Assembly (NCBI GenBank): GCA_964638435.1
Contig: CAZXAY010000010.1
Location: 1 to 30,573, forward strand
Length of the DNA: 30,573 nt
DNA from: an uncultured Candidatus Saccharibacteria bacterium
GTDB lineage: Bacteria; Patescibacteriota; UBA1384; JAMDBS01; CAZXAY01
Direction of reading: 5' to 3'
In this document: piece after piece, positions 1,892 through 22,025 of the stretch
How positions within the stretch are numbered: position 1 is the stretch's first letter
Layout of the letters: each line of letters opens with the position of its first letter
Notes under the pieces: model-generated
What the model was told of the DNA's origin: nothing
The model's input: the letters and a program-made list of their open reading frames with translations, nothing else
Database searches by the model: none
Program-made: the position numbers and the translations under genes

Positions 1892-2575
1892 TTGAGTATT
1901 CGAAAAAAAGGAAAACTTATCGTGATAGATGGGGTTGATGGATCGGGTAAAAAAACTCAGACTGATATTTTGGTACGCCGATTAATCAAAGAGGGATATA
2001 AAGTAGAGGTTGCTGATTTTCCACGTTATGGTGAGCGATCTGCAGCACTAGTTGAGGATTATTTAAACGGTAGGTTTGGAGATGCTAAGTCTGTTAATTC
2101 TTATGCTGCCTCAATTTTTTACGCTGTAGATCGCTATGCCGCATCATTTGAAATTAAAAAATGGTTAGATCAAGGGAAAATTGTTATTTCTAACCGTTAT
2201 GTTTCGGCCAATATGGGGCATCAATGTGGGAAATTAAAAACTAAAAGTGAAAAGCAAATTTTTTTAAAATGGTTGAATAATCTTGAGTTTGAAATATTTG
2301 GTATTCCTAAACCTGATAAAAATATCCTATTGTACGTTGAACCAGGAATAGGTCAGAAATTAGTGGATAAAAAAGGCCATCGCGATTATATTGGTGGAAC
2401 CAAGCGTGATATTCACGAAGCAGATATTAATCATTTGAGGGATGCAGTTAATACTTATTTATACGTTGCCAAAAAATATCATTGGGATGTAATCAAGTGT
2501 TTTAAATCTGATAAAATGCGTCATATCGAAGAAATATCCCAAGACATTTGGCAATTAGTTATGGAGGTTTTATAG
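1892..2575 (+). CDS. tmk: thymidylate kinase (TTG start)
   Basis: P-loop LIVIDGVDGSGKKTQ. Lid/DR(Y) region AVDRYAAS. Length 227 aa. AAGGAGG lies 5 nt upstream of TTG. Confidence 0.85.
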   Translation: MSIRKKGKLIVIDGVDGSGKKTQTDILVRRLIKEGYKVEVADFPRYGERSAALVEDYLNGRFGDAKSVNSYAASIFYAVDRYAASFEIKKWLDQGKIVISNRYVSANMGHQCGKLKTKSEKQIFLKWLNNLEFEIFGIPKPDKNILLYVEPGIGQKLVDKKGHRDYIGGTKRDIHEADINHLRDAVNTYLYVAKKYHWDVIKCFKSDKMRHIEEISQDIWQLVMEVL

Positions 2576-2602
2576 CAATTATAAAAAAGTTACGGATATT
2601 CA

Positions 2603-2723
2603 AACCTGTTCCAACTTCGTCCTTCAATATGTTCAGGACGCCCTGTCTTCGACTCTGAGGGATGAGCCCTCAGGCTCAGACTCGAACGAGAGCTTGTCGA
2701 ATGGGCGGAGGTTGGTACAGGTT
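2603..2723 (+). ncRNA. candidate structured RNA / cis-regulatory leader (unclassified, multi-stem)
   Basis: GC-rich patch in an AT-rich intergenic region. Outer 13-bp stem AACCTGTTCCAAC (2603-2615) pairs with GTTGGTACAGGTT (2711-2723), one mismatch. Nested stems: GACGCCC/GGGCG, TTCGAC/GTCGAA, hairpin CTGAGGG-ATGAG-CCCTCAG, and GCTC/GAGC. No stop-free coding potential on the + strand. Confidence 0.4.
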
Positions 2724-2758
2724 CAAAATAACATAACTTTTAATAAATAAGGAGTGGG

Positions 2759-3355
2759 ATGATGAATAAATTAGTTTGTATTGTTGGTATGACTGGATCG
2801 GGGAAATCAGTGGTGGCTGATGAATTTGTTAAAGCCAGATACGGATATCTACGATTTGGGCAATTAACACTTGATGAGGTTAAAAAAAGATATGGTAATA
2901 ACCCTCCAGAAGGTTTTGAAAAAGTAGAAAAAGAGATTCGTGAAGGGTTTCGTGCTAAATATGGCATGGGAGCTTTTGCCACTTTGAATATTCCCAAATT
3001 TGATGAGTTGTTAGAAAAAGGCAACGCCTTAGGCGATGGTTTATATAGTTGGACAGAATATAAAATTTTAAAAGAAAAGTATCGAGACAAATTTTTTGTT
3101 ATTGCAGTTTATGCTCCGCCAGCTTTGCGATATCAAAGGTTAGTTAATAGATCAAAAGATGTAAAAGATGATCCCAAACTAAGGTACCGGTCTTTTACTC
3201 TGGAAGAAGCAAAATCACGAGATTTTGCCGAGATCGAAAATATCGAAAAAGGTGGTCCCATCGCCATGGCTGATTATACTATAGTAAATATTGGTGATAT
3301 GGACGAAGTTATTAAAAAGACTAAAGAAATAATAGAAGAAATAGGTAACAAGTGA
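2759..3355 (+). CDS. P-loop nucleotide/nucleoside kinase (NMP-kinase fold, CoaE/dNMP-kinase-like)
   Basis: Walker A VGMTGSGKS. The lid-like region YAPPALRYQRLVNR resembles the dephospho-CoA-kinase/NMP-kinase superfamily. It lies inside a dTMP-pathway gene string. AAGGAG RBS. Confidence 0.55.
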   Translation: MMNKLVCIVGMTGSGKSVVADEFVKARYGYLRFGQLTLDEVKKRYGNNPPEGFEKVEKEIREGFRAKYGMGAFATLNIPKFDELLEKGNALGDGLYSWTEYKILKEKYRDKFFVIAVYAPPALRYQRLVNRSKDVKDDPKLRYRSFTLEEAKSRDFAEIENIEKGGPIAMADYTIVNIGDMDEVIKKTKEIIEEIGNK

Positions 3356-3381
3356 CAAAGTAACCAGTAACAAGGAGTACT

Positions 3382-3936
3382 ATGAAAAGTGATGATCAAA
3401 AAATCCACGAGGAGTATGAAAAGCGCCCAAGTTGGGATGAGTATTTTATGGAAATTGCTCATGTGGTAGCAACACGCGCAACATGTAATAGAAATGTTGA
3501 TTTAAAATATCGCCCAGGATTTAAAGGTTGTGGAGTAGTTATTGCCAAAGATAAAGTGTTGCTTTCAACCGGCTACAACGGCGCACCAAGAGGAATGGAA
3601 CATTGTGGACATACTAATCACGAGATGGTAGAAGGGCATTGTATCAGGACAGTGCATGGCGAGGCAAATGCAATTGCTCAAGCTGCAAAAAATGGTGTAG
3701 CAATTGATGGCGCAACCTTGTACACAACTGGGTCAAGTTGCTATGACTGCTTTAAATTATCAGTTAATGCTGGGATAAAAAGGGTTGTTTATGGACAATT
3801 TTACGATAGTCGTTATGGAATGAGTAGCAAGGTTTTGGAACTAGCGAAAAAGGCAGGAATTGAAATGTTACATATAGATGAGTGCAAACCAAAAGTCACC
3901 TCTCGACATCGCTCTAGGCAGGAAGCTAAAAAGTAA
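3382..3936 (+). CDS. comEB: dCMP deaminase (cytidine/deoxycytidylate deaminase family)
   Basis: Zinc-binding motifs HGEANA and SSCYDC (CxxC). 184 aa. Confidence 0.85.
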   Translation: MKSDDQKIHEEYEKRPSWDEYFMEIAHVVATRATCNRNVDLKYRPGFKGCGVVIAKDKVLLSTGYNGAPRGMEHCGHTNHEMVEGHCIRTVHGEANAIAQAAKNGVAIDGATLYTTGSSCYDCFKLSVNAGIKRVVYGQFYDSRYGMSSKVLELAKKAGIEMLHIDECKPKVTSRHRSRQEAKK

Positions 3937-3937
3937 A

Positions 3938-4363
3938 ATGAAAATTAAAGTTAAAAAAATCAATAGTGTTGCAAAAATCCCAGAATATTCCAGAGTGGGT
4001 GATGCGGGGATGGATATTTTTGGTTGTGAGGAGTACGAGCTAATGCCGGGTGAAAAGCATATTTTTGGCTCGGGCATTGCTGTGGAATATCCTGATGATC
4101 ATTTGGCTTATATTTATGACAAAAGTGGACTTTCATGTAAGCATGAATTAATCACTCTTGGCGGTGTAATGGACCCAAACTATCGTGGCGAATGGCAAAT
4201 AACTATCAAAAATATTGGCTCCAAGCCGTATAAAATCGAAAAAGGTGAAAAAATCTGCCAAATAGTTTTCCATAAAATATCTCAAGCTGAAGTTGAGGAG
4301 GTGGACCAGTTAGATAATACTAATCGCGGCGACGGCTGGGCTGGAAGTAGTGGAAGATTCTAA
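3938..4363 (+). CDS. dut: dUTP diphosphatase
   Basis: MKIKVKK...IPEYSRVGDAGMDIF and GGVMDPNYRGE are dUTPase motifs. The likely true ATG is at 3938, one nt after the dCMP deaminase stop. The ORF-track extension to 3878 overlaps the upstream gene and has no RBS. Confidence 0.85.
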   Translation: MKIKVKKINSVAKIPEYSRVGDAGMDIFGCEEYELMPGEKHIFGSGIAVEYPDDHLAYIYDKSGLSCKHELITLGGVMDPNYRGEWQITIKNIGSKPYKIEKGEKICQIVFHKISQAEVEEVDQLDNTNRGDGWAGSSGRF

Positions 4364-4407
4364 TCTAGTAACAAGTAACCAGTGACCAGTGACGAGGAAT
4401 GTAAGAA

Positions 4408-5037
4408 ATGATCAATCAAATAATTAAAGAAGTAGAAAAATACCTAAAAGGGCGGAGTGATTCGCACGATATTGAGCATTGTCATCGTGTGGCTAAAATA
4501 GCCCGTGAGGTTGCCAAAGACTATAACAAAGCCGATACGGAGATTATTATTGCAGGGTGTTATTTACATGACGTAGGTTATACCAAAGCATCTTATGGTC
4601 ACCCGCATTGCGTGGCTGGAGTTAAAATTGCTCAAGATATTCTAGAAAAAATTGGTTACTCACAAGACAAAATTGATAAAATATGCGAAATAGTATTACA
4701 TCACGAAGATAGCAAATTTGGCATAAAATACCAGCCTAATCTAGAAACTAGAATAGTCCAAGATGCTGATGCAATTGATGGCTTTGGAGCTGTTGGGCTA
4801 TCAAGATTTTTCCAATTCGCTGGCTCAACTAATATGCCTCTTTGGATTCCCAGTTACAAAAAAGAACCAAAGATAATTTATGAAAATATAAGTATAATCC
4901 ATAACATCGAGGCAGTGATTAAATATGCTGGTGAAATTTGTACTACAAAGCTTGGTAAAAAATTGTTTAAATATCGCCTAAAGGTAATGAAAAGTTTTGT
5001 TAAAGAATTTAAAAAAGAATGGACCACCCAGATATAA
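4408..5037 (+). CDS. HD-domain phosphohydrolase (possible 5'-deoxynucleotidase)
   Basis: H..H...HD motif: HCHRVAKIA ... YLHDVGY ... LHHED. 209 aa. Sits in the dNMP/dTMP metabolic context. Confidence 0.7.
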   Translation: MINQIIKEVEKYLKGRSDSHDIEHCHRVAKIAREVAKDYNKADTEIIIAGCYLHDVGYTKASYGHPHCVAGVKIAQDILEKIGYSQDKIDKICEIVLHHEDSKFGIKYQPNLETRIVQDADAIDGFGAVGLSRFFQFAGSTNMPLWIPSYKKEPKIIYENISIIHNIEAVIKYAGEICTTKLGKKLFKYRLKVMKSFVKEFKKEWTTQI

Positions 5038-5048
5038 AATTTCATCAG

Positions 5049-5800
5049 TAACCTGTTATCACCCTCAAGGTGATAACAGGTTATCTACGATATTTTGTTT
5101 ATATGAATTATAGAAAACAACCATTAGTTAATGAAGGAATCTATCATATTCTGAATAAGAGTATCGCAGAGTATAAAATTTTTAGTAATAATTTTCACTT
5201 TAGAAGAATGATGCAATTATTAGTTTACTATCAATATGCCAATGTACCAGTAAGATATTCTTATTTTATTAAGCTTGATCCACAAGAGCAAGATGAAGTA
5301 TTTAGATATTTACAGATAAAAAATGATAAACTTGTTGATATAATTTCCTATTGCCTTATGCCTACCCATTATCATCTTATTTTAAAACAGTTATTGAAAG
5401 GTGGTATTTCAAAATATATCAATTTAATCCAAAACAGCTATGCAAAATATTTTAACATAAAACACGATCGAAATGGCCCATTATGGCAAGGGTATTTTAA
5501 AAATGTATTAGTAGATACAGATGAACAACTTTTGCATTTAACTCGCTACCAACACATAAATCCAGTATCTGCTGGTTTGGTAGAGGATCCTATTGAGTGG
5601 GAATATTCATCTTATAAAGAATATATAGGGAAAAAACAAACTAAAATTTGTAGTTATAATAATTTAATTGATGTCAGACCAAAAATATATAAAAGATTTG
5701 TTGAAAATAGAATTAGTTATCAGCGAGAATTAACAAGAATTAAAAAAATTATATTAGAATAAAAATATCAAACTTAACCTGAAATCACCTTGAGGGTGAT
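5049..5800 (+). mobile_element. REPtron-like unit: RAYT / IS200-like Y1 transposase gene flanked by inverted palindromes
   Basis: Left end: perfect 15-bp stem palindrome TAACCTGTTATCACC-CTCAA-GGTGATAACAGGTTA at 5049-5083. Right end: ATCACC-TTGAG-GGTGAT at 5784-5800. Its loop is the reverse complement of the left loop, and it is preceded by the same TAACCTG..ATCACC arm. Confidence 0.7.
5103..5762 (+). CDS. REP-associated tyrosine transposase (Transposase_17 / IS200-like HUH-Y1)
   Basis: HUH motif in YCLMPTHYHLIL. GPLWQGYF. C-terminal RYQHINPVSAGLVEDPIEWEYSSY matches the RAYT signature NPV.AGLV..P..W.WSS. The ORF-track GTG start at 5070 lies inside the left palindrome, so the ATG at 5103 is preferred. 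Confidence 0.75.
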   Translation: MNYRKQPLVNEGIYHILNKSIAEYKIFSNNFHFRRMMQLLVYYQYANVPVRYSYFIKLDPQEQDEVFRYLQIKNDKLVDIISYCLMPTHYHLILKQLLKGGISKYINLIQNSYAKYFNIKHDRNGPLWQGYFKNVLVDTDEQLLHLTRYQHINPVSAGLVEDPIEWEYSSYKEYIGKKQTKICSYNNLIDVRPKIYKRFVENRISYQRELTRIKKIILE

Positions 5801-5834: not shown

Positions 5835-7232
5835 ATGGGGAGAAATATGGCAAATAATACAAGAAGAATCTACCAATTAGATCAAAATTTAACACCCGAG
5901 CAAAGGATTGTTACTTTTGCTAAGTGCTCGCGTAGTGCTGAACCATTTGATAAAATCGCCAAAGAACTAACCGACGAAAAAGCAGCCAAATTTAATCAAC
6001 GTTATGTTGTAGCTTTTGGTCACCTGTCAGTGGCCGAGCATGCTGCTTTTAATATCGCTATGGAAGACGTTTCGATATTGGCGACAAAGATAATTGAGGA
6101 TAATCGCTTGGGATCGTTTACCGAGCGTTCCACCCGTTATCAAGTTTATGATAAAAATAGTTATTATAAACCAGATAGTATTATGAATTCAAAATATGCT
6201 GATGTCTATGGAAAAGCTGGTAATTATCTTTTTGAAATTTACGAAAAACTTTATCCGATAGTATGCGAGGATATGAAAAAAAACTACCCAAAAACTAATG
6301 ATAATATTAAAACCTACGACACAATGATTAAAGGTAAAACATGTGATGTAGTAAGATATATTCTACCTGTAGCAACTCTAACAAGTCTAGGTATGACGCT
6401 CAATGCTCGCAATTTAATTTACGCAATTAACAAAATGATAACCAGCCCGCTTGGTGAGATGCAAGATATCGGTAATGATCTAAAAAAGATTGCCGAAAAG
6501 TCTATTCCTACAATTGCTAACATGATTAAACCAATTAAATATCTAGCTGAAACCTTGCCAGAATTACAGAAAACAGTTAGTCGGATATCATTTAATCAAA
6601 CAGATATTAAGCAAGAACCAGTTACTCTAGTAGATTATGATGTTAATGCTGATGATAAATTAGTTACAGCATTAATTTATAGGTTTTTATCACAATCGTA
6701 TGAATCAATTAAAAATAAAGTAAGTAAAATGAGCCAAATTCAAAAAGAGGATATTATTGATCAGGCGCTTAAAAACCGCTCAGCTATGGATCAACCACTT
6801 CGCGAACTCGAGCATATTTATTATACCTTTGATATTTTAATGGATTATGGGGCATTCCGTGATATTCAGCGGCATAGGATGTGCTCGCAAACTAATCAAC
6901 TTGTAACATGCGATCATGGTTATGAAATACCAGACAAGATTCGAGAATTGGGTGTTGAGAAAAAATATATTTCTGCTATGGACACATCACGAGAGGCTTA
7001 CGAAAAGATAAAAAAAGATTTTCCCCAAGAGGCTCAATATATTGTAGCATTTGCTTATAAAAAACGCACTCTATTCACATGGAATTTAAGAGAACTACAC
7101 CATTTTATATCTCTTCGCAGTCGCCCAGCTGGTCACGTCTCATATCGCTTAATTGCTAATCAAGTCTATGATGAACTTGCTAAAGTCCATCCACTACTTG
7201 CTAAATACATAAACGTTGTAAAAATAAAATAG
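5835..7232 (+). CDS. thyX: flavin-dependent thymidylate synthase ThyX, tandem two-domain form
   Basis: Domain 1 has HLSVAEHAAF and DNRLGSFTERSTRY (a degenerate RHR but an intact S.RY). Domain 2 has QRHRMCSQ (RHR intact, S.RY missing). Both halves carry the F.W..N.R.L..F motif (LNARNLIYAI and FTWNLRELHHFISLR). 465 aa. Confidence 0.8.
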   Translation: MGRNMANNTRRIYQLDQNLTPEQRIVTFAKCSRSAEPFDKIAKELTDEKAAKFNQRYVVAFGHLSVAEHAAFNIAMEDVSILATKIIEDNRLGSFTERSTRYQVYDKNSYYKPDSIMNSKYADVYGKAGNYLFEIYEKLYPIVCEDMKKNYPKTNDNIKTYDTMIKGKTCDVVRYILPVATLTSLGMTLNARNLIYAINKMITSPLGEMQDIGNDLKKIAEKSIPTIANMIKPIKYLAETLPELQKTVSRISFNQTDIKQEPVTLVDYDVNADDKLVTALIYRFLSQSYESIKNKVSKMSQIQKEDIIDQALKNRSAMDQPLRELEHIYYTFDILMDYGAFRDIQRHRMCSQTNQLVTCDHGYEIPDKIRELGVEKKYISAMDTSREAYEKIKKDFPQEAQYIVAFAYKKRTLFTWNLRELHHFISLRSRPAGHVSYRLIANQVYDELAKVHPLLAKYINVVKIK

Positions 7233-17065: not shown

Positions 17066-19261
17066 TTACCAGCGAGTTTTATCGTCTTGCTTATCAATGC
17101 TTTCTTTAGGCAACGACTTATCAATATTTATGTTATTGATAGGTTTAACCATTGATGATTCACTTAAGGTTTCTTCTATAGGAACTGACCAGATGGTATA
17201 TCCCCAATAACTTAGTCCTAAGATAGCTAAGCCAATAATTATTGATAAAGTTAGCAACCATCGATTAGTATTTTTAACTTCTTCTGCTTCCAAACCTTCA
17301 GTAACAATCTCAGATGCTTTGATTTTTCCCAATGAATCATCCGCGACTTCGACTATTGTATCTTTATTCTCTTTAATCGTTGTTTGACCAGGAGATTTAG
17401 TTGAACTAATTGATGTTGTTGTGCTGTTTGGTATAGACCCCTCTGATTTATTAGTTATTGAGTTAGTTGATTTAGTGCTAATATCTTTTACTTCAATACT
17501 AAATATTTGGCTTGCATTACCTGATATAACCTTAACTTTGTAATTACCAACTTTGTTAGCCATAAATCTGCCAGTTGAATCAATTGTTGCATTATCCAGA
17601 CCCTCAACTACAATCCAAGCAAGGTTTGGGTTAGACAATAAATTATTGTCTGCATCATAAGCATTGGCACTAAATTGATGGATAGTATTAATATAGATTA
17701 TTTCTGTAGTACTAATAATATCAATTCTCGATGGCACCCCGGGATTGTCAATTGTGACACTTGTGGTAATTGATTTATTGCCATATGTAGCAGTAACTTG
17801 CCATGTGCCAACTTTACCAGCATTGTAAATATTGTTGGAAAATGCACCTTTTGGGTCAGTTGTTGAAAAACTTGCTTGGTTAGAAATATCCCAACTATTC
17901 CCATATTGATCTAATGCCCACACAATATATGTTTGTGATTGGTCTGTATTAGATAAATGGGTGTTTATAGGGGAAATAGTCAAGTGATTAATTGTCTCGG
18001 CATGTTTTACAGTAACAATAGTGTTGGTTGAACTTATATTTCCGACAGTGGCGTTAACATCATATGTTCCAACTAGGTTAGTTGTGAATAACCCGTTAGA
18101 ATTAGTTCCAACCCAAAAAATCACATCATTTCTAACATTTCCAAATTGATCGTAAGCAGATGCTGTAAATTGTAAAGTATCGCCTGCTTTGATAGTTTGA
18201 TTTGAATTGGGGGAAATTGTGATGTGATCTAAGGCAGCTGGGTTAATGGTAACATTTACAGAACTAGAACTAATTGATCCGGATGTAGCCTTAATTTGAT
18301 AAGTACCTGCTAAAGTATTACTAAAAAGTCCAGTGTTGTTTGCATTAGTCCAGATAAATGTATCACCAGCGCGGATATTACCATAGCTATCAGTTCCAGT
18401 TACCGTGAATTGAATAGTTTGCCCAGCTATAATAGTTTGCGTGCTACTAGGGGTGATATTTATTGTCCCTAGCGTACCAAAAGCAAAATTAATTACACCA
18501 GAATTACCAGTTTTACCATTATCAGTAACAGTAACAAATTGATTAGCCTGAGAGCTATACGATCTGATAGTTACATTTGCAATCCCATTAGTAAATACAA
18601 TCGGCCCATAATATGGAGTAGTTGCATTTGGTGAGGTAGCTAAACCTGAAAGTGCAGGTGTGCCATTATATGATGTTATCGTATTATTAGAGTTATTCTG
18701 CGCAGTGATGGTTAAATTTACATCATTACCAACTGTCGTGTTTGTAACAGATGGAACTACGTTAAAGTGATCCAATGTTTGAACTTGTCCAATAGTAAAT
18801 AGTGCTGATTGGTTTGGACCATCAATATTTTGACCACTTGAGTTTCTTGTTTCAACGTTTACAGAGTAATTTCCATTTGCTGAAGAATTAATCACATGCA
18901 ATAGCTGAAAAGATATTAGTGATGAATTGCCAATATTACTAGTTGAATCTAATGTTAAAAACACTGTATCAACAACTTTAGTAATAGTTGGATTACCAAG
19001 ATTACCTGAATATCCTCCTAATGTTACGTTATTGAGGTTAAATCCAGCTGGGTAGGTGATTTTGATCATTCCACCCTGAGGGATCGCTCCAACACTAGAG
19101 GTTCTAAAAGTTACAGTGTGATTAGTCGAAACTGCTGGGGTAGTTGAGTCTGGAGTTAATGTAAATTCACTAATGTTAGCAGCATATGCATTATTAGTAG
19201 CAAAAAGTGTTATGATTCCTAATATAACAAATGTAATACTTAGTTTAAGTAATTTAATCAT
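17066..19261 (-). CDS. cell-surface protein with signal peptide, multiple Ig-like (Big_2-type) repeats and C-terminal TM anchor
   Basis: N-terminal signal MIKLLKLSITFVILGIITLFATNNAYA. Repeated about 80-aa modules (ITISPNSNQTIKAGDTLQFTASAYDQFGN...; INITPSSTQTIIAGQTIQFTVTGTDSYGN...; IDIISTTEIIYINTIHQFSANAYDADNN...). C-terminal RWLLTLSIIIGLAILGLSYWGYTIW TM helix plus a charged tail. Confidence 0.7.
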   Translation of the reverse strand: MIKLLKLSITFVILGIITLFATNNAYAANISEFTLTPDSTTPAVSTNHTVTFRTSSVGAIPQGGMIKITYPAGFNLNNVTLGGYSGNLGNPTITKVVDTVFLTLDSTSNIGNSSLISFQLLHVINSSANGNYSVNVETRNSSGQNIDGPNQSALFTIGQVQTLDHFNVVPSVTNTTVGNDVNLTITAQNNSNNTITSYNGTPALSGLATSPNATTPYYGPIVFTNGIANVTIRSYSSQANQFVTVTDNGKTGNSGVINFAFGTLGTINITPSSTQTIIAGQTIQFTVTGTDSYGNIRAGDTFIWTNANNTGLFSNTLAGTYQIKATSGSISSSSVNVTINPAALDHITISPNSNQTIKAGDTLQFTASAYDQFGNVRNDVIFWVGTNSNGLFTTNLVGTYDVNATVGNISSTNTIVTVKHAETINHLTISPINTHLSNTDQSQTYIVWALDQYGNSWDISNQASFSTTDPKGAFSNNIYNAGKVGTWQVTATYGNKSITTSVTIDNPGVPSRIDIISTTEIIYINTIHQFSANAYDADNNLLSNPNLAWIVVEGLDNATIDSTGRFMANKVGNYKVKVISGNASQIFSIEVKDISTKSTNSITNKSEGSIPNSTTTSISSTKSPGQTTIKENKDTIVEVADDSLGKIKASEIVTEGLEAEEVKNTNRWLLTLSIIIGLAILGLSYWGYTIWSVPIEETLSESSMVKPINNINIDKSLPKESIDKQDDKTRW

Positions 19262-20422: not shown

Positions 20423-22025
20423 CCCGACTTGTAACATTCTGTTTTTTAAAAGAAATTTGATTGATTATCTAACCATATAACTTGTTTCAAAACTCATTTT
20501 TTGTCATACTAATGGCATGTTTCATATTAGAATAACAAAAACTGCTTCATTATCAAGCGCTGTTCAAGTAGTTCGCTATGAACAACGTAGATTAATTGTT
20601 GTAAAACATATTGGTAGTGCCCATACCTCAGAAGATATTAAGGCGCTAAAATTAATTGCGCGCGAGTGGATAGAAAAGAAGTCTAAACAGCACTCTCTTT
20701 TCCTTGCACAAAAAACAACAGCTTCTCGATTTATCTCTTTGGAGAAAAGCCAGTTTTTGGGAACTCGTTATCCTTTTATTCATCAATTTCTGACCAAAAT
20801 ATCTAGTCGATTTAACTTTGAAAAATTAAATTGTAATTTACTTACCGATTTAGTGATTATCCGTATTATTGAGCCTGCGTCTCTTCTGCGTTCCACAGAG
20901 CTTTTAGACGAGTTGTTTGGTATTAAATATTGGCGTGAGGATTTCTATCGTTATTTGCCACATTTTATCGGCTGGAAAGAAAAAATAGAAGAATGTGCGC
21001 TAACTTTAGCAAAAAGAGAACTTAAGTTCAATTTTACACTCGTCTTTTATGATGTAACAACTTTGTATTTTGAATCATTTAAAGCTGATAATCTAAGAAA
21101 ACCTGGTTTTTCTAAAGATGGTAAATCTGCCCAACCTCAAATCTTAATCGGTTTGCTTGTAAGCTCTGAGGGGTTTCCTGTCGCCTATGAAATATATGAG
21201 GGCAATAAATTTGAAGGTCATACTTTAATTCCTTCTATCTCAAATTTTCAACAAAAATATGAGATCAAAACACTGACAGTTGTCGCTGATGCAGCCATGA
21301 TCAGTTCTGACAATATTAAAGCCCTAAAAGGAAATCAGCTTTCATACATCGTGGGTGCTAGAATTACTAATCTTCCCAAGTTAGTAATAGATGAGATTAA
21401 TAAGAAACTTAAACCTGAAGATGGGACAACCATCAGAATAATATCCAAACATGGAATTTTAGTCTGCGGTTTTTCAACTAAGAGGTATAACAAGGACAAA
21501 CGCGAGATGGAAAAGCAAATCGCTAAAGCAACAATATTACTTAAGTATCCGACAAAAGCCAAGCGTACAAAATTTGTTAAAAGTAAAACTAAAACTAGCT
21601 TTGAGTTAAACAAAACGTTAATTGAAAAAACTAAAAAACTCCTTGGGATTAAAGGATATTACACAAATCTTAATGAAGTTGATGATCAAACTATCATCGC
21701 CAGGTATCATGATCTTTGGCACGTTGAACAGGCTTTTAGAATAGCAAAAAATGATCTCGAGACTCGTCCCGTTTATCATTTTAAAGAAGATCCTATTAAA
21801 GTTCATATTATGATCTGCTTTATGGCTTTGGCCGTTTGCAAATATCTAGAGATCAAAACTGGTAAATCAATTAAGAACATTATCAAATTATTTAAAAGTG
21901 TGGTAGATGCCCGAATTCTGAATACTGTAACAAGAGAAGAAATCACAATGCAATCTGTTATATCAAAAGAAGTGAAAGATATTTTAGAAATATTAAGATT
22001 GCCATACTAATTGTTACAAGTCGGG
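20423..22025 (+). mobile_element. IS4-superfamily / IS1634-family insertion sequence
   Basis: Terminal inverted repeats CCCGACTTGTAACA (20423-20436) and TGTTACAAGTCGGG (22012-22025), 14/14. Single DDE transposase ORF. Flanked by a 171-bp direct duplication. Long variable target duplications are a hallmark of IS1634-like elements. Confidence 0.8.
20517..22010 (+). CDS. DDE transposase, IS4/IS1634 family
   Basis: 497 aa. Candidate catalytic D in FYDVTTLYFES and VADAAM. C-terminal YHDLWHVEQAFRIAK fits the IS4 Y-x2-[R]-x3-E-x6-K signature (here L replaces R). Confidence 0.75.
   Translation: MFHIRITKTASLSSAVQVVRYEQRRLIVVKHIGSAHTSEDIKALKLIAREWIEKKSKQHSLFLAQKTTASRFISLEKSQFLGTRYPFIHQFLTKISSRFNFEKLNCNLLTDLVIIRIIEPASLLRSTELLDELFGIKYWREDFYRYLPHFIGWKEKIEECALTLAKRELKFNFTLVFYDVTTLYFESFKADNLRKPGFSKDGKSAQPQILIGLLVSSEGFPVAYEIYEGNKFEGHTLIPSISNFQQKYEIKTLTVVADAAMISSDNIKALKGNQLSYIVGARITNLPKLVIDEINKKLKPEDGTTIRIISKHGILVCGFSTKRYNKDKREMEKQIAKATILLKYPTKAKRTKFVKSKTKTSFELNKTLIEKTKKLLGIKGYYTNLNEVDDQTIIARYHDLWHVEQAFRIAKNDLETRPVYHFKEDPIKVHIMICFMALAVCKYLEIKTGKSIKNIIKLFKSVVDARILNTVTREEITMQSVISKEVKDILEILRLPY

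Follow-up and report, generated by a model that had tools for sequence, protein, structure and literature searches.

Tandem ThyX of a Saccharibacteria contig carries the thymidylate synthase active-site signature divided between its two domains

How can a flavin-dependent thymidylate synthase (FDTS) operate when neither of its domains holds the whole active-site signature of its family? The question is raised by the thyX gene of an uncultured Candidatus Saccharibacteria bacterium, located on contig CAZXAY010000010.1 (assembly GCA_964638435.1), the 30,573 nucleotides of which are referred to here as the window. An earlier account made from the letters of the DNA (the sequence-only reading) had described a fused, two-domain ThyX in which the signature RHR-x7-S-x-RY is shared out between the halves by complementary degeneration, and had suggested an obligate pseudo-heterodimer with half the usual number of active sites. 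The results presented below indicate that the protein is probably a working ThyX/FDTS which arose by duplication and fusion followed by division of labour, with composite sites formed between domain 2 and domain 1 and two fused chains assembling into a dimer with two sites.

Domains 1 and 2 of the window protein are abbreviated D1 and D2, and its residues are counted from the ATG at 5835. The gene and its parts are as follows.

5847..7232, plus strand: tandem thyX gene, encoding a two-domain flavin-dependent thymidylate synthase, 461 amino acids (aa) from the ATG at 5847
5886..6509, plus strand: ThyX domain 1, aa 18-225 (PF02511, 4.2e-27); keeps the residues of the deoxyuridine monophosphate (dUMP) loop, without the flavin-binding RHR
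6510..6626, plus strand: inter-domain linker, aa 226-264, helical then coil in the AlphaFold2 (AF2) secondary structure; the least conserved part
6627..7193, plus strand: ThyX domain 2, aa 265-453 (PF02511, 1.3e-25); keeps RHR and R428, without the S-x-R-Y loop and the equivalent of Thermotoga maritima R147

The open reading frame (ORF) spans 5835..7232 on the plus strand (465 aa) and has the two in-frame ATGs described earlier, at 5835 and 5847. The second is the better start, because homolog N-termini and the NCBI annotation favour it: most of 120 close homologs begin, in the alignment, one residue after the second Met, and the NCBI protein (461 aa, 100% identical to the window thyX product) starts at 5847. 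Scanning for promoter and terminator consensus sequences around thyX returned sites no more frequent than expected by chance, and is therefore uninformative on the start codon.

Are there really two ThyX domains? Pfam Thy1 (PF02511) gave 2.1e-53 on the full-length protein, with the match falling into two stretches, and the proposal of a two-domain fusion stood when each half was scanned separately, both matches being significant: residues 1-233 gave 4.2e-27 over aa 18-225 and residues 234-465 gave 1.3e-25 over aa 265-453. The latter value rules out that unrelated inserted sequence stands where a second domain would be. The equivalog model TIGR02170 (thyX) scored 112.4 bits against a cut-off of 87.9, this whole-protein score drawing on both matched stretches. 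The AF2 monomer model, computed with 69 homologs, reached a mean predicted local distance difference test (pLDDT) value of 91.3 and a predicted template modelling score (pTM) of 0.89, and depicts a confident, compact two-domain unit. When this model was compared with the PDB using Foldseek, the top 50 matches were all chains of ThyX or of the ThyX-like PolB, ~180-245 residues long, with probability 1.00 and with template modelling scores of 0.60-0.79 (target-normalised) or ~0.35 (query-normalised, one half being matched at a time); neither sequence nor fold searches of the PDB found a solved chain with two ThyX domains. Aligned by hhalign to T. maritima ThyX, the D1 and D2 profiles gave probabilities of 92% and 88%, respectively. 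Direct pairwise alignment of D1 with D2 produced a spurious local match only, and homology between the two is visible through profiles only. Domain content, fold and equivalog score thus place the window protein in the ThyX family, and tandem ThyX proteins are currently named "FAD-dependent thymidylate synthase" in the databases, FAD being flavin adenine dinucleotide.

Residue equivalences were taken from the hhalign alignments of each half's profile to T. maritima ThyX, whose reference sequence was checked to be identical to that of PDB 1KQ4/1O26. The elements that carry the argument are these.

6018..6041, plus strand: D1 G62-H63-L-S65-V-A-E68-H69, equivalent to T. maritima H53/T55/E58/H59 and M. 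tuberculosis H69/S71
6099..6140, plus strand: D1 motif DNRLGSFTERSTRY, aa 89-102, reading D89-N90-R91-L-G-S94-F-T-E97-R-S99-T-R101-Y102; D89-N90-R91 replaces RHR, with E..S.RY retained
6354..6356, plus strand: D1 R174, equivalent to T. maritima R147
6867..6899, plus strand: D2 motif QRHRMCSQTNQ, aa 345-355, reading Q345-R346-H347-R348-M-C-S351-Q352-T-N354-Q355, with RHR kept and S-x-R-Y replaced
7038..7040, plus strand: D2 Y402, at the T. maritima R147 position
7116..7118, plus strand: D2 R428, equivalent to T. maritima R174, the uracil-activating Arg

Position by position, the two domains correspond to T. maritima ThyX as listed next.

T. maritima H53/T55: D1 H63/S65; no His in D2 (M318; F, H or Y in the family)
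T. maritima E58/H59: D1 E68/H69; D2 E326/H327
T. maritima R78-H79-R80: D1 D89-N90-R91; D2 R346-H347-R348
T. maritima S83: D1 S94; D2 S351
T. maritima E86: D1 E97; D2 N354
T. maritima S88: D1 S99; D2 L356
T. maritima R90: D1 R101; D2 T358
T. maritima Y91: D1 Y102; D2 C359
T. maritima R147: D1 R174; D2 Y402
T. maritima N163/R165: D1 N190/R192; D2 N417/R419
T. maritima R174: D1 M201 (ungapped helix register) or K200 (hhalign); D2 R428
T. maritima H178: D1 S204 (H in many relatives); D2 H434

Within either domain of the window protein the signature RHR-x7-S(-x-RY) is absent, and it is complete only over both. The same is true of the full T. maritima ligand set (R78, H79, R80, E86, S88, R90, Y91, R147 and R174), each member of which is present once per chain: R346, H347, R348 and R428 lie in D2, and E97, S99, R101, Y102 and R174 in D1. 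T. maritima R147 is a ligand of the dUMP phosphate. The division of the motif strings proposed by the sequence-only reading, S.RY in D1 and RHR in D2, was recovered at nucleotides 6099-6140 and 6867-6899, and reciprocal differences extend beyond it, since the R147 position is Arg in D1 only and the R174 position is Arg in D2 only. Three finer statements held in part. D1 indeed has no RHR, but it retains the third Arg (R91, in 135 of the 141 family sequences described below). The H..EH element, said to be kept in both halves, is present in D1, but D2 has E326 without the first His, and H327 is found in only 31/141. Likewise, the F.W..N.R.L..F helix is literal in D2, but D1 retains only N190-x-R192-x-L.

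Is this pattern peculiar to one genome? Both versions of the motif are ~100% conserved among 120 close homologs (≥51% identity). To go further afield, a family alignment of 140 full-length representatives plus the query was used (141 sequences, 30-50% identity), and the complementary loss that was to be looked for in other lineages holds throughout these diverse tandem proteins. RHR occurs in D1 in 0/141 and in D2 in 132/141, while S-x-R-[YF], counted in aligned columns, occurs in D1 in 137/141 and in D2 in 0/141. The T. maritima R147 position is Arg in D1 in 140/141 and, in D2, basic in none and Tyr in 135; the R174 position is basic in no D1 (an adjacent K/R is found in 131/141) and Arg in D2 in 140. 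The full RHR-x7-S-x-RY was not found in a single domain of any of the 141. In D1, conservation is high for R91 (135/141), E97 (140), S99 (140), R101 (141), Y102 (134), H63 (118), S65 (141) and E68 (129), and in D2 for R346 (141), H347 (133) and R348 (140); Y402 is invariant in the phage tandem copies too. The mean column conservation, expressed as the majority fraction, is 0.51 for D1, 0.45 for D2 and 0.29 for the linker.

These values point to strong purifying selection on both halves, and the label "degeneration" is not apt: the halves are strongly conserved and so are the replacements themselves (D89, K200, Y402, T351/Q352/Q355). Decay or pseudogenisation of one half is ruled out, both halves being conserved and the pattern being fixed across phyla. 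With each half conserved, and with conserved replacements at the "lost" positions, the split represents an ancient subfunctionalisation that followed an old duplication and became fixed across the family. The window thyX is an ordinary, typical member of this tandem family and not an oddity of its genome. There is a practical side for annotation, as a signature that looks for RHR-x7-S within a single domain misses all 141 diverse tandem sequences checked.

What would such a division mean for the active site? The canonical ThyX site is a composite of three subunits of a homotetramer, which has four such sites (PMC6514825). In the M. tuberculosis enzyme, subunit A gives the RHR (95-97) to FAD-A, where R95 (R78 in T. 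maritima) and R199 (R174) contact the flavin and dUMP; subunit C contributes Q103 (through its backbone), S105, R107 and the "lid" Y108 (T. maritima E86, S88, R90 and Y91); and subunit B contributes S71 and R190 (T. maritima T55 and R165) (PMC6514825). For Helicobacter pylori ThyX, too, the S-x-R-Y loop is stated to come from a subunit other than the one that carries RHR and the R174 equivalent (PMC6514825), and independent evidence comes from PBCV-1 ThyX, in which different monomers provide Arg182, equivalent to R174, and the Ser88 loop (PMC3498832). As to function, R174 activates dUMP, and S88 and Y91 assist methylene transfer (PMC8316439), while R78 stabilises the reduced flavin and mutations of Y91 slow flavin oxidation ~1000-fold (PMC11940539).

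When the window protein is mapped onto these roles, all residues of the A role fall in D2 and all those of the C role in D1. Because RHR/R174 and the S-x-R-Y loop sit on different subunits, one complete site would be expected from a D2+D1 pair, the convergence of D1 and D2 ligands in space being predicted from the subunit roles described for the canonical enzyme (PMC6514825). We propose that the ThyX domain was duplicated and fused long ago and that the two copies then divided the labour. FAD binding and activation of the uracil would fall to D2 (R346-H347-R348, R428 and H434), and holding dUMP and closing the site to D1 (R91, E97, S99, R101, Y102 and R174), which would probably also provide the folate-side His/Ser residues H63, S65 and S32. 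A D2+D1 pairing would then make one complete site, whereas the mirror D1+D2 pairing would be without all these residues and non-working, as the reciprocal pocket (A = D1, C = D2) would lack R78, H79, R174, S88, R90 and Y91 at once. The most likely assembly is a pseudo-tetramer in which the four domains of two chains would share two active sites and two FAD. With two D1 and two D2 placed in 222 symmetry, exactly two sites would be complete (A = D2, C = D1), each converting dUMP to thymidine monophosphate (dTMP) with methylenetetrahydrofolate (CH2-THF) and NAD(P)H. The residue pattern excludes having one domain type at both the A and the C position, because no site would then be complete.

The pseudo-heterodimer with half the sites put forward in the sequence-only reading is therefore supported by the residue roles and by the family-wide pattern; its oligomeric state and site number are deduced, not observed. 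The same holds for catalysis, for the dimer-of-fusions assembly with its two-site stoichiometry, and for which D1 copy, that of the same chain or of the partner, would complete each site. The third-subunit role could fall to a second D1, in which H63, S65 and R192 are conserved, or to a second D2, in which N417 and R419 are. The retention in D1 of the R147 equivalent along with the S-x-R-Y loop predicts that these form one functional unit.

Several points weigh against this scheme. The grouping of R147 with the S-x-R-Y loop is a putative one, drawn from the retention pattern, with which the description of the 1O26 structure reportedly agrees. No biochemical or structural data on any tandem ThyX were found in the searched literature, and there is no PDB entry. 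Both domains conserve the third-subunit residues (T. maritima N163/R165), for which neither possible pseudo-tetramer arrangement accounts in full. In addition, hhalign pairs T. maritima R174 with K200, a conserved residue of D1, and D1 may therefore retain a basic residue near that position; the ungapped helix register counted from N-x-R, which gives M201, is preferred, although not proven. Finally, R91, K200 and Y402, which would lie in the "dead" sites, are highly conserved, and the second pair of pockets could thus be something other than simply inert.

This last point leads to a variant of the proposed assembly, in which the two "dead" pockets have been repurposed for a second ligand, be it NAD(P)H, a regulatory (deoxy)nucleotide or folate. 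The idea arises because the residues lining these pockets have been replaced by strongly conserved rather than variable ones: D89 is Asp in ~72% of sequences, R91 is conserved in 96%, K/R200 in 93% and Y402 in 96%, alongside T/S351, Q352 and Q355. We regard such repurposing as unlikely, though if it were true the pockets would constitute an allosteric or electron-delivery site that homotetrameric ThyX does not have. Another reading makes all four pockets catalytic, with D89/N90, K200, Y402 and T351-Q352-x-x-Q355 forming a second, non-canonical type of active site. The conservation of the substituted residues (K/R200 in 131/141, Y402 and R91 each in 135/141) speaks for it, but the reciprocal pocket is without the first Arg of RHR, the stabiliser of reduced flavin (PMC11940539), and usually has Asp there, and it misses R174, S88, R90 and Y91 together. 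Considering that R174 activates dUMP (PMC8316439) and that mutations of Y91 cut the rate of flavin oxidation ~1000-fold (PMC11940539), catalysis in all four pockets appears highly improbable.

It might also be asked whether the fused chain needs a partner at all. One chain holds every residue of both main roles, and the monomer model is compact and confident (pTM 0.89), so that a single composite site could be imagined within the chain, between its own D2 and D1. A parallel exists in the monomeric dUTPase of herpesviruses, which derives from duplication of a trimeric enzyme with its motifs redistributed. Canonical sites, however, require a third subunit, the third-subunit residues S65, R192 and R419 are still conserved here, and the large tetramer interfaces of the ThyX domains would presumably be left exposed; we consider a single-site monomer improbable. 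Another question is whether the ThyX fold serves other chemistry or another substrate in this family, as a methylase or hydroxymethylase of a different pyrimidine nucleotide would, in the manner of PolB acting on UMP/dUMP. The ThyX superfamily does include such enzymes, PolB (PDB 4P5A/4P5B) is among the sequence and fold matches, and the canonical motif is missing from either single domain; some phages with modified DNA are also reported to carry ThyX homologs. Yet every uracil and dUMP ligand is retained in trans (R428, R101, S99, Y102, E97 and R174), thyX sits in a cluster with the genes for thymidylate kinase (tmk), dCMP deaminase and dUTPase, genes that recur near tandem thyX across lineages, some species fuse it to thymidylate kinase, and the score is above the TIGR02170 equivalog cut-off. 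PolB itself is only a distant sequence match (E 5.7e-4), and PolB-type UMP/dUMP methylases are single-domain proteins of nucleoside-antibiotic clusters, whereas the window ThyX has two domains and housekeeping nucleotide-metabolism neighbours. A different substrate is possible, with little to support it, and we hold it to be very unlikely. The scheme of D2+D1 composite sites in a dimer of fusions remains the one we favour.

How does the tandem protein compare with what is known? With the canonical homotetrameric enzymes (T. maritima TM0449, PDB 1O26; M. tuberculosis, 2AF6; PBCV-1, 2CFA) it has in common the fold of each half, the Pfam/TIGRFAM family, the overall set of FAD and dUMP ligands and the pathway context. 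It differs in that its chain has two domains with the signature never whole in one of them (0/141), and in that the canonical tetramer has four sites whereas the tandem layout is predicted to have two per four domains. Leduc and colleagues reportedly obtained, in work in PNAS in 2004, mixed ThyX heterotetramers from complementary inactive mutants. The likeness is close, in that sites are shared and two differently defective subunits rebuild a working one; those heterotetramers, however, were laboratory mixtures of point mutants, whereas in tandem ThyX complementation would be hard-wired by fusion and fixed by selection. Composite sites of which one pseudo-symmetric copy has been lost are also seen in heterodimeric ATP-binding cassette (ABC) transporters with one degenerate ATP site and in the monomeric herpesvirus dUTPase. 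These systems likewise pair homologous domains with complementary loss of motif halves, but their folds and chemistry are unrelated and they serve as analogy only.

The architecture itself has been noted before. Valas and Bourne (2009, PMC3224940) mentioned a duplication of the ThyX domain in Chloroflexi and "a few other species" which "has not been characterized"; this is the same architecture as that of the window ThyX, and the split motif is not described there. With tblastn, the window protein indeed aligns from end to end with Chloroflexota proteins (Anaerolineae, Thermoflexus, Chloroflexia), at 39-44% identity. In the literature searched, only that paper mentions the duplication, and neither the complementary split of the motif, nor its structural meaning, nor the structure or enzymology of a tandem ThyX was found. 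The tandem architecture is thus known, and its complementary split is not described in the searched literature. Chlamydial ThyX may bear on this point. The chlamydial enzyme (CT632), ~529 aa long and hence of roughly double length, is said to have been characterised biochemically as an FDTS by Griffin and colleagues in JBC in 2005. Searches seeded with two 530-aa tandem proteins returned Clostridia/Acidobacteria and Patescibacteria/glaucophytes, respectively, and no Chlamydiae. According to PMC6171736, the chlamydial protein has diverged too far to be aligned with other ThyX sequences, and if it shares the tandem architecture the novelty of the present findings falls.

ThyX is the sole thymidylate synthase of many bacteria and a drug target. 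To our knowledge, all mechanistic and structural work on it concerns homotetramers with four identical three-subunit sites. The tandem family offers a natural partition experiment, which may show which catalytic residues act together from one subunit: the partition predicts R80, S88, R90, Y91 and R147 as one unit and R78, H79, R174 and H178 as the other. It would also provide a clean system in which to ask whether two sites per particle suffice.

We then asked how widespread the tandem form is. A library-wide HMMER search, with proteins clustered at 50% identity, returned 733 clusters with E ≤1e-30 and 4142 with E ≤1e-3, and a scan of one genome per species found a relative in at least 592 species. 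Counted as at least 592 species genomes and 733 clusters, this distribution is far wider than that given in PMC3224940. The named close relatives are from Patescibacteria and Woesearchaeota. Among the matches listed, the species scan gave relatives in Patescibacteria, in DPANN archaea (Woese-, Aenigmat-, Iain- and Nanoarchaeota) and in Chloroflexota (Anaerolineae, Thermoflexus, Chloroflexia), with further ones in Armatimonadota, Methylomirabilota/NC10, Acidobacteriota, Entotheonella and Zixibacteria; other branches include Terriglobales (e.g. Silvibacterium dinghuense) and Clostridia. The tandem form is the ThyX found in the retrieved genomes of Patescibacteria, DPANN, Chloroflexota and Acidobacteriota, and also in several large phages. 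Tandem ThyX with the same split was found in the Microcystis phage Ma-LMM01 group, in Tunturi_5 and in Vibrio jumbo phages, at the following positions of the phage loci.

181-1653: Microcystis phage Ma-LMM01 gp020, tandem ThyX with the same split
277-1830: Tunturiibacter phage Tunturi_5 (309 kb) gp50, tandem ThyX with the same split, following a dCMP deaminase gene
163-1602: Vibrio jumbo phage BONAISHI ORF269, tandem ThyX with the same split

In Sulfolobus and Stygiolobus viruses, ThyX has a single domain and matches the D1 half of the query only. Two tandem sequences are of glaucophyte derivation, a Gloeochaete wittrockiana transcript (P0142) and an EukProt gene model (P0398); they are 68% identical to each other, and their nearest relatives, at ~58%, are from Patescibacteria (Kerfeld-/Uhrbacteria). 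Either horizontal transfer into glaucophytes or contamination could account for them. In P0142 the "GH" of D1 reads "GD". Six contigs of metagenome-assembled genomes put together by third parties and titled "uncultured Gammaproteobacteria" or "Methanosarcinales" carry a tandem thyX whose product shares 51-55% identity with that of the window; with their Patescibacteria-like neighbourhoods, their taxon labels look unreliable.

The genes around thyX inform on its function. Just upstream lies a run of same-strand genes (1892-5037, plus strand) made of tmk, an ORF resembling an AAA_18 P-loop kinase, the dCMP deaminase gene, the dUTPase gene and an HD-domain ORF, of which three belong to the thymidylate pathway.

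1892..2575, plus strand: thymidylate kinase (tmk), PF02223 2.1e-20
3382..3936, plus strand: dCMP deaminase, dUMP-supplying, PF00383 4.6e-18
3878..4363, plus strand: dUTPase, dUMP-supplying, PF00692 1.6e-26

The run is a cluster for the synthesis of dTMP and thymidine triphosphate (dTTP), bringing together makers of dUMP and a consumer of dTMP. Because thyX follows the tmk, dCMP deaminase and dUTPase genes, its product is most likely a working thymidylate synthase. When the proteins of the window were compared with those of 80 related loci in other species, genes for Tmk, dCMP deaminase and dUTPase were each found within ~6 kb of a tandem thyX in 14/80, and at least one of the thymidylate-pathway genes lies near it in ~27/80, as tallied from the per-gene lists. 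Six proteins of 690-742 aa are Tmk-ThyX-ThyX fusions with PF02223 at the N-terminus, and in some Patescibacteria, e.g. Staskawiczbacteria, such proteins form a three-domain module leading from dUMP to thymidine diphosphate (dTDP). As listed, the last 59 nucleotides of the dCMP deaminase ORF are shared with the dUTPase ORF, the start of which may therefore be later.

Between the HD-domain gene and thyX lies a GTG-started ORF of 230 aa (5070-5762, plus strand) with a weak match, at 31 bits, to an IS200-like Y1 transposase. No counterpart was found in the 80 related loci, and because 0/80 carry one, this ORF looks like an insertion into the nucleotide-metabolism cluster. Directly 3' of thyX, two ORFs of 90 and 187 aa (7360-8192, plus strand) gave no Pfam match and had no counterpart in the 80 loci.

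The rest of the window consists of housekeeping genes, encoding SmpB, threonyl-tRNA synthetase (ThrRS), L25, UvrA, IF3, L20, Lgt, LspA and a signal peptidase, with a few further ORFs. An ORF of 731 aa at 17066-19261 (minus strand) has no Pfam match, and a DDE_Tnp_1 transposase gene (20517-22010, plus strand) is found near it. An ORF of 721 aa at 11614-13779 (plus strand) matches MVP_shoulder at 1.4e-29 and the Vault repeat families at 1e-12 to 1e-19, with a weak Band_7/SPFH match, and would represent a homolog of the eukaryotic Major Vault Protein, unusual in what looks like a Patescibacteria genome.

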